Position numbers: made by a program. DNA of 64,000 bases from Escherichia coli. GTDB lineage: Bacteria; Pseudomonadota; Gammaproteobacteria; Enterobacterales; Enterobacteriaceae. The stretch is taken from NCBI RefSeq assembly GCF_051903065.1, contig NZ_CP178440.1, one strand, 5' to 3'. Shown here piece after piece: positions 23,301 to 27,834 of this stretch. Positions within the stretch are counted from its first letter, which is position 1. The number at the start of each line of letters is the position of its first letter.

Positions 23301-26300
23301 ACGCTGGCGCGTCGCCCGTTACCCTTCCCGTCTGTGATGTGTCTGACTCAGGAGTGTTTCTTTCTTATGTTGCGGAACTGTTCCTGATGTTGTTGTTGTT
23401 CCTTTATCTGCTGCTCTGATTCTGACTACTGCAGTGTTGTTCTGTCTGCCGGGCGCACCTTCGGCTCCCGGCTGCCTGGCGGCATCCGGTCGTCAGGCCC
23501 GACTCCGACAGGCAGCTGCTGGCGCACCTGCCAGTCTCCGCCGAACCCGCTGGCGCGGCTTCGGGCTGCCGCTACGGTCCGATGCGTGAAAACCCCGGGC
23601 TTGCAGCGACCGTTCCGGTCGCGCCGCCTCTGTCGCGCCGTGGCCTGCGCTCCTGGCATCCCGGCAAAAGGCCGCCGGGATGTAAGGGGCAACGCCGTTT
23701 CGCGCACGCGCTCTCCGTCGTTGCGGCGGGTCCCTGCTCATTGCCTGCCGGGTGCCACACACCCGTATGAGTCCCTGTCGCCGGGGGCTGATACAGCCAC
23801 AACCTGCCGCACTGACTGTCCAGGGTAAATGAACAGCCCACAAAATTTTTTACCCAAAACCCGGTAAAAAATTTTGCGTTCTGCCCAGGACAGGTGCGTC
23901 AGGCCGTGGCAGTGATGCCCCTTGCGGCGAAGGTTCTCAAACGGGTGAAGTTCATACCACAGGGAATACAGCAGCAGGTTCCCGCGAAACGTCAAAACCG
24001 CGGCTCCCGAAACTCAACGGGTGATGTTCTTTAAAAATCAGGATTTATTTCAGGCTCCGGCAATACGCATTTATTTGTTCTGTCAGTCATCCGGCTGGCA
24101 GGTAATGAGAACGCAGGAACAGAAGGAGGAAAACACCGTAGAACGTCAGACGCAGATATGAAAAAAGCAGGTCAGGGACCTGCTTAATCCACGCCGTAAG
24201 AATTGCGCAACCAATTTTGACGGCATTGTTAACCAATTTGTCATAAGGAGTTTCATTTATGACAGTAAGTATTGTTTCACCTTCCGCAGCGGCTGTAAAG
24301 CCCCGCCGTCATCCCCGTTTCAGACGCGAAGACATCCCCGCGCCGGAAATTGACCCCGTGCTGAAAGCCTTCGGGCGACACATTGCCCGGAGTTTTCACC
24401 GGGGGCGTGGTGTACACATCCCCGCCATGAAAAACACGGCCTTCGGGCAGGTGCTCCGCACACTCGAACTGAAACGCGCTTTTAACTGATGAGGTGAGCC
24501 GCCCCGCGAGGGGCGGCAACAGACGGAAGGAGAACATTTTATGACATTAGCAGCCATCACCATGACCGCCCCGGAAGCCGCCAGCCCTGTGCAGATGTAC
24601 CGCGCGACCTACTCACCGGATGACAACAAACTGCGCCTGTATGCCGCGTCACGCCTCGACCCGGAGACGTATAAAAAAGTGCATGATGCTGGTTTTCGCT
24701 GGGCACCCAAACAGGCGCTGTTTGTCGCGCCGGCCTGGACACCGGGCCGGGAAGACGTGCTCCTCTCACTTGCCGGAGAGATTGAGGATGAAGACAGCAC
24801 GCTCGCTGAACGTCAGGAAGCACGGGCGGAGCGGTTTACCGGATACAGCGGAAAGCGGGCCAGTGAATCCGCACAGGCACTTGATGAAGTGGAAAGACTG
24901 GCCGCGATGATCCCGCCCGGTCAGCCCATTCTTGTGGGGCATCACAGCGAACGCCGCGCCCGTCGTGATGCGCAGCGTATTGAAAACGGCATGAAACGTG
25001 CCGTGATGCTCTTTGAACGTGCGGAATACTGGGAAGAACGCGCGCGGTCGGCACTGCTTCACGCGAAGTATAAAGAACGTCCGGACGTTCGCTGGCGTCG
25101 TATCAAAAAAATCGAAGCTGATTTGCGCAAGGCTGAAAAGACCATTGCACAGTCGCAGAAATATCTGACGATGTGGCGGGCTGAATCGCTGGATCTGAAT
25201 ATGGCAAAACTCATCAGCAGTCATGACCATATCAGCGCCTGTTTCCCGCTGGATACGTATCCGCGCCCGGCAGAAAAAAGCCAGTATGAAGGAAGTCGAT
25301 CGTTATGGTCGGCCCTGGATGATGACATCATCACCACGGAGCAGGCCCGCGAAATTGCGATCCGCTGTCATGAACGGCAGATCCAGCGTCAGCAACGCTG
25401 GGTTAACCACTATCAGAACCGCCTGATCTATGAGCGTGCCATGCTGGACGAAAGCGGCGGCGTGGTTACCCGGACACAGGATTTTGAGCCGGGCGGACAG
25501 GTTTTCAGCCGGGGCGAGTGGCTGACCATCATCCGTGTGAACAAAAGCAACGGGGCGGTGAGTTCAGTCACAACGCCAAATTACAGTTTTCTCGGGTACA
25601 GCGGCACGATGAAAGTGACGCCCGATCGCATCACGGACTACAAAGCACCATCGGCAGAAGAGGCTGCCGTCGCCAGTCAGGCCGCGAAGCGTCCGCCGGT
25701 AGTCAACTATCCGGGGGAAGGTTTCCGGGAAATGACAAAGGCACAGTGGGCCGCCCTGCCCCGGGACTGTAAGGCCGTGCGCAGTGTGGCAGAAGCAGAA
25801 GACCACGGGGCATACCGCTACCGCCGCACAATGGACAATAATTTCCGCCTGGTGAATGTGTATATCACCGACATGAAAATCACGGAAATTCCACAGAAAT
25901 AAGGTATATCCCCCCGGGAAAATCCCCGGGGGATGACGGAGATAATGACATGCACAGTCAGTTAAGAGAACGTATCCGGCTGATGCGCGCAAGGCTGGAT
26001 AACGCCGCGCCGGTTGCTGAAATCCGGGCTGAATCTCAGCTTTTTGTGACTCCTGCCCCGGTCTGTGATCGCCTGGTGATGCTGGCGGAGATCAGCAACC
26101 GTGATCACATTCTGGAACCCTCTGCCGGCACCGGGGCCATACTGCGGGCGATTCGGGATACCGCGCCGGGGGCCATGTGTGATGCGGTGGAAATCAACAG
26201 CGGGCTGGTCCGGTATCTGCGGGAAAATTTTAACGGTGTCAGGGTTCAGTGTGGCGACTTCATGGAATGGCAGCCGGCGCAGTATTACAGCCGGGTTATC

Positions 26301-27834
26301 ATGAATCCGCCGTTCAGCCACGGGCAGGATATCCGGCATATCCTGCGGGCCTTTTCCCTGTTGCGTCCGGGTGGCGTGCTGGTCGCCGTCTGTCTCAACG
26401 GACCACGCCAGCAGGAGAAGCTGTTACCGTTTTCTGACGTCCGCGAGGAGCTGCCGCGCGGCACGTTTGCTTATACCGATGTCCCGACGATGATTATTCG
26501 TCTGCGTGCCTGAAGACGCCGGGCAGGCGGGAGGATAAATGCCCGTCTGCCCGCGCCGGGAAAAGACCGCGCGCCGGTGGCGCTGAAAGGGGCCGCGCTC
26601 ACGCGCCGCCCCTTTCATTACGCGGACGTTCTGATGGGGGCTTCTGTTTCTTCATGCCTGTCATTTGTCTGTTACTGATGTTGTTGTTCCTGCTACTGCT
26701 ACTGTTCTTCTTTTTCCTGCTGCTCTGATTCTGACTACTGCAGTGTTGTCCCGTCTGCCGGGCGCACCTTCGGCTCCCGGCTGCCTGGCGGCATCCGGTC
26801 GTCAGGCCCGACTCCGACAGGCAGCTGCTGGCGCACCTGCCAGTCTCCGCCGAACCCGCTGGCGCGGTTTCGGGCTGTCGCTACGGTCCGATGCGTGAAA
26901 ACCCCGGGCTTGCAGCGACCGTTCCGGTCGCGCCGCCTCTGTCGCGCCGTGGCCTGCGCTCCTGGCATCCCGGCAAAAGGCCGCCGGGATGTAAGGCGCA
27001 ACGCCGTTTCGCAAACCGCGCTTCACGTCGTTGCGGCGGGTCCCTGCCCGTTGTTGTGTCCGGTGCCATTCACCTGTTTAAGCCCCTGTCGCCGGGGGCA
27101 TAGACAGCCACAACCGTCTCCGCCAGTCCAGGGGTGAAATGCACATCCCGCAAAACTTTTTGCCCGGAAGCAGGCAAAAACTTTTGCGGTCTGCCCCCGG
27201 ACAGTCGTTTCCGGCCGTGGCAGTGATGCCCCTTGCGGCGAAGGTTCTCAAACAGGTGATGGTGAATACCGGAGGGAACAAAGAGCAGGTCCCCGCAAAA
27301 CGTCAAAACCGCGGCTCCCGAAACTCAACAGATGATGGGGGCTGAAAACATCAACAGAAGGAGACACATCATGGCAGTTCGTGGAATTAACAAGGTCATT
27401 CTTGTCGGTCGTCTGGGAAAAGATCCGGAAGTCCGTTACATCCCCAACGGGGGCGCAGTGGCAAACCTGCAGGTCGCCACGTCGGAAACCTGGCGTGACA
27501 AACAGACAGGGGAGATGCGGGAGCAGACAGAATGGCATCGCGTGGTGCTGTTCGGCAAGCTCGCGGAAGTGGCTGGCGAATATCTGCGCAAAGGCGCGCA
27601 GGTCTACATCGAAGGTCAGCTTCGCACCCGTAGCTGGGAAGATAACGGTATCACCCGTTACGTCACCGAAATTCTTGTTAAGACCACAGGCACCATGCAG
27701 ATGCTGGGACGTGCCGCAGGTGCTCAGACTCAGCCGGAAGAGGGGCAACAGTTCAGCGGTCAGCCTCAGCCGGAACCACAGTCGGAGGCCGGTACGAAAA
27801 AAGGTGGCGCAAAAACGAAAGGCCGTGGACGTAA

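Follow-up and report, generated by a model that had tools for sequence, protein, structure and literature searches.

We identified a block of three co-directional plus-strand open reading frames (ORFs), ydaB-ydbA-ydcA, at positions 24259-26513 of a 64,000-nucleotide stretch of Escherichia coli DNA (contig NZ_CP178440.1 of RefSeq assembly GCF_051903065.1; this whole stretch is called the window below), and found that YdbA, a DUF3560 protein, and YdcA, a methyltransferase core, are joined in a single polypeptide in most of the best-matching relatives of YdbA. The fusion provides a Rosetta-stone link from YdbA to YdcA and is the main new result of the analysis; the block itself is ubiquitous and already catalogued, so it is not new as sequence. 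The explanation we favor, at a probability of about 0.55, is that the block belongs to an accessory IncF cassette driven by an Frpo-type single-strand promoter, in which YdbA and YdcA would make up one split gamma-class adenine methyltransferase, produced at plasmid entry and acting against restriction.

The coordinates and protein lengths given for the block in an initial annotation of this DNA were confirmed, and all three ORFs are real genes. ydaB (24259-24489, +) encodes 76 amino acids (aa) and is supported by its ORF, its homologues, and its ratio of nonsynonymous to synonymous substitution rates (dN/dS); ydbA (24541-25902, +) encodes 453 aa, and ydcA (25950-26513, +) encodes 187 aa. A Shine-Dalgarno sequence lies 7-8 nt 5' of each ATG (AAGGAG for ydaB and ydbA, GGAG for ydcA). 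A Klebsiella IncFIB/FII plasmid keeps all three ORFs (76, 451, and 187 aa) at approximately 71% DNA identity, and between the E. coli and Klebsiella copies, where synonymous divergence is high, dN/dS was 0.12 for ydaB, 0.09 for ydbA, and 0.29 for ydcA, showing that purifying selection acts on ydbA and ydcA as individual genes. All three proteins are basic, with isoelectric points (pI) of 8.96 for YdbA, 8.86 for YdcA, and 11.9 for YdaB, the last of which had been described as basic from the start. The intercistronic gaps are 51 nt (ydaB/ydbA) and 47 nt (ydbA/ydcA), and each contains a GC hairpin lacking a T-run. The one between ydaB and ydbA (24499-24518, +) folds as RNA at about -22 kcal/mol, with no T-run 3' of it, and has the same sequence in the Klebsiella plasmid (L010 2830-2887). 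The one between ydbA and ydcA (25907-25933, +) has a folding free energy (dG) of -21.6 kcal/mol, and its Klebsiella equivalent (L010 4237-4290) has a different sequence and a retained stability (dG -21.4), which suggests a conserved RNA or single-stranded DNA structure.

YdcA was predicted from its motifs and matches to be a core-only gamma-class (TaqI/EcoKI/DarB-like) N6-adenine DNA methyltransferase with no target-recognition domain. The S-adenosylmethionine (SAM)-binding and NPPF motifs noticed earlier were both recovered, with FVTP at residues 32-35, EPSAGTG at 56-62, and NPPF at 119-122, in the order motif X, I, IV; the combination of TP and NPP(Y/F) is the signature of the EcoKI/TaqI-like adenine methyltransferases of polyvalent proteins (Iyer et al. 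2017, PMC5512222). The best match among Protein Data Bank (PDB) sequences was M.TaqI (E = 1e-6), the alignment starting at the TP helix and running past NPPF (M.TaqI residues 22-122). Against Pfam, generic class I methyltransferase families were retrieved, including MTS (E = 1e-6) and RrnaAD. In NCBIfam, the best models were Erm, KsgA, and PrmC (E = 9e-9 to 9e-6), all far under their cut-offs (35.1 bits against a cut-off of 212 for Erm, and 30.4 against 171 for KsgA). The PADLOC search returned mad2 (E = 1e-20, 72 bits) followed by a run of type II and orphan DNA methyltransferases, and the methyltransferase domains lying within giant PHROG proteins (1259-3925 aa) matched at E = 1e-31 to 1e-33 (108-115 bits); DarB of phage P1 matched at 24% identity (E = 9e-7). 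As had been proposed, the protein has no target-recognition domain, since YdcA stops at residue 187, directly after the catalytic domain, and Pfam and structure comparison revealed neither a target-recognition nor an HsdS-like domain in either YdcA or YdbA.

Two known systems resemble YdcA in its catalytic domain. M.TaqI (PDB 1AQJ, 2ADM, 1G38) has the same motif order (X, I, IV), the TP, and NPPY/F; however, it is 421 aa long with a C-terminal DNA-recognition domain, whereas YdcA has 187 aa. DarB of phage P1 and the polyvalent methylase module (PMC5512222) carry an EcoKI/TaqI-like adenine methyltransferase domain with an N-terminal TP helix and NPP(Y/F). DarB-like modules are deployed at entry by invading elements, and by analogy we propose the same for YdcA. 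In the DarB-like dyad, LPD36 stands N-terminal and an SF2 helicase C-terminal of the methyltransferase; YdcA is instead partnered by DUF3560, and no LPD36 or helicase (SF2/SNF2) Pfam match was found in YdcA or in 76 aligned sequences of the fused type.

The only Pfam domain of YdbA is DUF3560 (PF12083; residues 89-206, E = 1.1e-36, model positions 3-121 of 124). We searched 1.84 billion representative proteins for homologues of YdbA and found 3899, the best 146 of which were used for fusion counts. A YdcA-like domain is present at the C-terminus in 99-100 of these 146 (37-48% identity, E = 1e-30 to 5e-40), and 74 of the best homologues have the modal length of 620-720 aa. Because 99-100 of the best 146 homologues carry YdcA as their C-terminal domain, ydbA and ydcA are best described, from these comparisons, as the products of fission of the gene for one enzyme at its inter-domain linker, with YdbA as the non-catalytic half. 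When 75 fusions were aligned with the concatenated IncF pair, each half matched end to end; the IncF split point falls in the variable proline-rich linker of the fusions, DUF3560 was detected in all 76 sequences, and the MTS domain was detected in 73. G513, G515, N572, P573, and P574 are invariant across the 76 sequences, and F485, T487, P488, E509-A512, D556, F557, and F575 are conserved in at least 90%. The suggestion that the 453-aa and 187-aa proteins act as a unit is thus borne out by their occurrence as a single polypeptide in most relatives.

Fused forms were identified in Beta-, Gamma-, and Deltaproteobacteria, Acidobacteria, and Planctomycetes. One fusion is encoded on an Acidovorax MOBF plasmid, within an island of co-directional genes that also includes those for a DnaQ-like exonuclease, a C5-methyltransferase, SSB, DUF932, and RadC, and one relative of 1394 aa adds an LPD29 domain, making it a polyvalent protein. 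The gene neighborhoods of the metagenomic fused homologues (L002-L005) were mostly unannotatable. We also observed a lineage from a wastewater metagenome in which only fragments of a methyltransferase, 79-91 aa long, come after an unfused DUF3560 gene (L007 7460-7699, L008 4581-4856); the catalytic half seems to decay in that lineage, judging from the fragment lengths.

Structure prediction for YdbA, proposed in the initial annotation as a follow-up, gave a confident AlphaFold2 (AF2) model, with a predicted local distance difference test score (pLDDT) of 92.6 and a predicted template modeling score (pTM) of 0.81, for which no solved structural relative was found. In the model, residues 20-83 form an N-terminal alpha/beta domain, residues 88-304 a long bundle of helices, and residues 320-368 and 396-442 two small beta domains. 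Conservation is highest in the N-terminal domain and in a GHHSE-containing loop, PPGQPILVGHHSE, at residues 124-136, and the invariant residues include R91, R167, R186, R187, R196, W66, W164, H290, R294, and E298. YdbA had no match in NCBIfam, PADLOC, or PDB sequences, and in PHROGs only families of unknown function were matched.

The reading frame of ydcA is open past the ydbA stop (25839-25950) in both E. coli and Klebsiella, where a -1 shift would restore the ancestral fusion. A programmed -1 frameshift re-fusing the two genes was considered and not adopted: a slippery-like G_AAA_AAA occurs in the Klebsiella plasmid only, the window having CAG_AAA_TAA, and the idea is also weakened by the Shine-Dalgarno sequence that ydcA has of its own.

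The window was identified by its gene content as the leading region of an IncF plasmid. A 4.1-kb stretch of it was matched by megablast in at least 5000 plasmid records, mostly conjugative IncF plasmids of Escherichia and Klebsiella, in which the successive genes are annotated as "hypothetical protein," "DUF3560 domain-containing protein," and "class I SAM-dependent methyltransferase," with ssb as the next gene. In an annotated IncFIA/FIC MOBF relative, a DNA methylase, DUF1380, a KlcA-type antirestriction protein, and a further DUF1380 gene precede the block on its 5' side, and ssb, DUF905, a ParB-like gene, psiB, hok, DUF932, SLT, and traM follow on its 3' side. The genes ssb and psiB, KlcA, the M.EcoGIX homologue described below, and the three-gene block all share one orientation. 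Samuel et al. (2024) listed the genes of the block among the families enriched in leading regions, with the methyltransferase as family 26 (n = 1957) and DUF3560 as family 28 (n = 1913, entered as uncharacterized), of near-equal size and with neighboring median positions (11 and 12). Our literature searches turned up no functional study of ydbA, ydcA, or DUF3560.

Two direct repeats offset by 3309-3311 nt, copy A (23378-24026) and copy B (26669-27337), flank the block, and both were annotated on the minus strand as Frpo/ssiD-like elements by comparison with the table of Frpo/ssi sequences given by Samuel et al. Copy B (26669-27341 as an element, minus strand) bounds the cassette upstream of ssb and is 95.5% identical to F ssiD over 27341-26992; a third copy, nearer oriT (37820-37471, minus strand), matches F ssiD at 95.5% as well. 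For the minus strand of copy A, identity is 78.5% with F ssiD and 93% with the Frpo that precedes ssb in F; this strand folds into a single long imperfect hairpin (dG -95.1 kcal/mol, z -8.75). The single-strand promoter postulated in copy A is accordingly a genuine Frpo-type homologue, by ssiD identity and hairpin, with the downstream genes co-oriented with ssb and psiB; from F ssiD/Frpo and the ColIb-P9 ssi1-3 elements it differs by its divergence. In F-like transfer, the minus strand is both the transferred strand and the template for the block, because the block is oriented as ssb and psiB are, with oriT/traM downstream. Frpo-driven transient "zygotic" expression has been documented for F and pESBL.

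Classical F lacks the block, its sequence running from the left flank (22579-23371) straight into one Frpo and ssb, and the experiments performed on F consequently did not cover these genes. The block and one Frpo copy behave, as judged from this comparison, as a 3.3-kb cassette between direct repeats of approximately 650 nt, which could be gained or lost through recombination between Frpo copies.

The block had been placed immediately downstream of copy A; it does lie downstream, but a leader of approximately 230 nt separates copy A from the ydaB ATG, and this leader holds the gene for the antisense RNA AS-pc01 (Rfam RF02875; 24162-24264, -), found at 90.4 bits against a gathering threshold of 79 over model positions 1-99 of 99. 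The antisense RNA overlaps both the ydaB start codon and the Shine-Dalgarno sequence before it, and the CUCCUU in the loop of its first hairpin is complementary to that Shine-Dalgarno sequence. A promoter-like site (24299-24271) and a terminator (24185-24165) of its own accompany it, and the Klebsiella plasmid has AS-pc01 at the corresponding position, with a score of 94.8 bits. We infer from this arrangement that AS-pc01 would silence the operon once the plasmid is double-stranded.

Put together, the favored explanation would run as follows. During conjugation, the transferred strand would fold at copy A, and host RNA polymerase would transcribe the three genes ahead of complementary-strand synthesis. 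YdcA would supply the SAM-binding catalytic core, and YdbA, which is rich in arginine and tryptophan and has a novel fold, most likely supplies what that core lacks, namely, DNA binding or targeting. With low specificity, the pair would then methylate adenines of the plasmid as it enters or has just become duplex, and the hemimethylated sites would escape the restriction enzymes of the recipient. Once the plasmid is double-stranded, the promoter hairpin would be lost, and AS-pc01, made from an ordinary promoter, would block the ydaB ribosome-binding site and leave the operon silent.

A modification-based anti-restriction role for YdbA/YdcA is plausible, as it would fit both the genomic context and the precedent of M.EcoGIX/M.BceJIII, an orphan adenine methyltransferase of a leading region that is silent in vegetative growth, is expressed from the entering single strand, methylates SAY sites specifically in single-stranded DNA, and has a demonstrated protective effect against restriction (Fomenkov et al. 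2020, PMC7736820). The likeness lies in the leading-region position, the co-orientation with ssb and psiB, and the putative single-stranded DNA promoter upstream. In contrast, M.EcoGIX is a beta-class enzyme with a DPPY motif in a single polypeptide, whereas YdcA is gamma-class, has NPPF, consists of the core only, and has a DUF3560 partner; by these features YdbA/YdcA differs in class and architecture from the one characterized leading-region methyltransferase. YdcA is not homologous to M.EcoGIX, whose homologue in the window is a different gene, a second orphan methyltransferase of the beta class (19551-20234; 227 aa) that is the IncF homologue of M.EcoGIX, and the plasmid would therefore carry 2 unrelated adenine methyltransferases ahead of ssb. 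M.EcoGII, another adenine methyltransferase of a mobile element, is silent in its host, acts on single- and double-stranded DNA in any sequence context, and blocks many restriction enzymes (Murray et al. 2018, PMC5778455); it differs from YdcA in being beta-class, 349 aa long, and equipped with its own target-recognition region, and the two have only the methyltransferase fold in common.

A further proposal, which we put forward tentatively and consider somewhat unlikely, is that YdbA-YdcA represents a third, structurally new route to promiscuous adenine methylation, in which a recognition-less core is delivered by a DUF3560 module. The target of DUF3560 would then be the entering single-stranded or just-replicated DNA. 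On the basis of the predicted model, the module, with its near-invariant GHHSE loop and arginine-rich helical bundle, may bind single-stranded DNA or a component of the host replisome, or may have a second activity.

Several observations weigh against the favored explanation of a split, entry-expressed methyltransferase. No recognizable DNA-binding fold was found in YdbA by structure comparison. The AF2 model of the concatenated YdbA-YdcA pair reached a pTM of only 0.64 (pLDDT 89.4), as against 0.81 for YdbA alone; the two proteins are therefore not confidently docked, and we claim no interface. Copy A is the most diverged of the 3 Frpo copies in the window, and its promoter role is putative. 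Classical F transfers well without the cassette, and the M.EcoGIX homologue and KlcA are already on the plasmid, which makes the added benefit of YdbA/YdcA unclear. The weak Erm/KsgA rRNA adenine methyltransferase matches leave room for an RNA substrate of YdcA, and the literature searched contained no methylation, binding, or restriction-protection data on the pair.

The absence of a target-recognition domain from YdcA, with YdbA always attached or adjacent, would also be expected of a sequence-specific orphan methyltransferase in which YdbA is a detached target-recognition subunit (HsdS/TRD-like), and in which one defined motif is methylated, blocking particular restriction systems or marking the plasmid for regulation. 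YdbA is most variable at residues 219-265 (mean top-residue frequency 0.32) and in its beta domains (0.46-0.48), and such variation could reflect diverging specificity. However, YdbA has no similarity to HsdS or to known target-recognition folds, the regions it conserves most, the N-terminal domain and the GHHSE loop, do not amount to a variable reader, and the characterized adenine methyltransferases of leading regions and prophages are promiscuous, so that we regard sequence specificity as unlikely. The two proteins might instead work independently, YdbA being an establishment factor of its own that acts on single-stranded DNA, primers, or a component of the host replisome, and YdcA a separate or decaying enzyme. 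Many DUF3560 proteins do have no methyltransferase, PHROG families of 213-355 aa holding the DUF3560 region only; the wastewater lineage retains mere fragments of the downstream gene, and the dN/dS of ydcA exceeds that of ydbA. Independence is nevertheless improbable in our judgment, since ydcA keeps its 187 aa and all catalytic motifs across Enterobacterales and the fused architecture is the majority state.

The substrate of YdcA could also be RNA or protein of the recipient (an adenine of rRNA or tRNA, or a glutamine as for PrmC), with reprogramming of the host as the outcome. This would agree with Erm, KsgA, and PrmC as the best NCBIfam models, with MTS and RrnaAD in Pfam, and with the 23S rRNA dimethylase label that KEGG gives to about one-fifth of the methyltransferase family (Samuel et al.). 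The NCBIfam matches are far under curated cut-offs (35 versus 212 bits), whereas the DNA methyltransferase models score higher, at 72 bits for mad2 and 108-115 bits for the phage domains, and M.TaqI, the best solved match, has the TP helix of DNA methyltransferases; a substrate other than DNA is on this evidence quite unlikely. The initial annotation had raised the possibility of a decoy. In that case the block would supply a DNA mimic or a sponge for restriction enzymes in the manner of ArdA/Ocr, and anti-restriction proteins of this kind are common in leading regions. DNA mimics are acidic, whereas every protein of the block is basic; none of them resembled ArdA, ArdB, KlcA, or any PADLOC/PHROG anti-restriction or defense family, and the conserved methyltransferase catalytic motifs are not needed by a decoy. 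The decoy idea was accordingly abandoned and can be given very little credence.

Thousands of clinical IncF plasmids of E. coli and Klebsiella, associated with resistance and virulence, carry the cassette, which is missing from laboratory F, and published work on early expression in F is uninformative about it for that reason. If YdbA/YdcA is a protective methyltransferase, it would give the plasmid a second means of evading restriction that does not depend on M.EcoGIX, with a bearing on host range and on efforts to block plasmid spread. Further, the fusion provides the first concrete functional link for DUF3560, a family with about 3900 representative homologues, and an adenine methyltransferase reduced to its core, with targeting placed in a separable subunit, could be of use as a footprinting tool.

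The first gene of the block was followed separately. We found 233 homologues of YdaB in Enterobacterales, and among the 120 matches listed, nearly all had 76 aa and 75-100% identity; the UniRef name YdaB is borne by one homologue, and the 76-aa protein may be a member of family 1 (YdaB/YdfB/YgdA) of Samuel et al. A single weak Pfam match to HU-CCDC81_euk_1 (E = 7e-4, 38 of 89 model positions), suggesting a possible HU-like fragment, was obtained, with no match in NCBIfam, PADLOC, or PHROGs. No YdaB paralogue was present downstream of the other Frpo copies within the window, and YdaB is not linked to the fused DUF3560-methyltransferase enzymes elsewhere.

Further along the leading region, a ParB-like gene is split (28272-35284), with nt 1-575 at 28272-28846 and nt 672-1959 at 33997-35284. 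The insert between the two parts is 5.15 kb long, has a low GC content, and is flanked by 2 directly repeated copies of IS26, and 96 nt of the gene are gone. Five full and 2 partial copies of IS26 were identified in the window.

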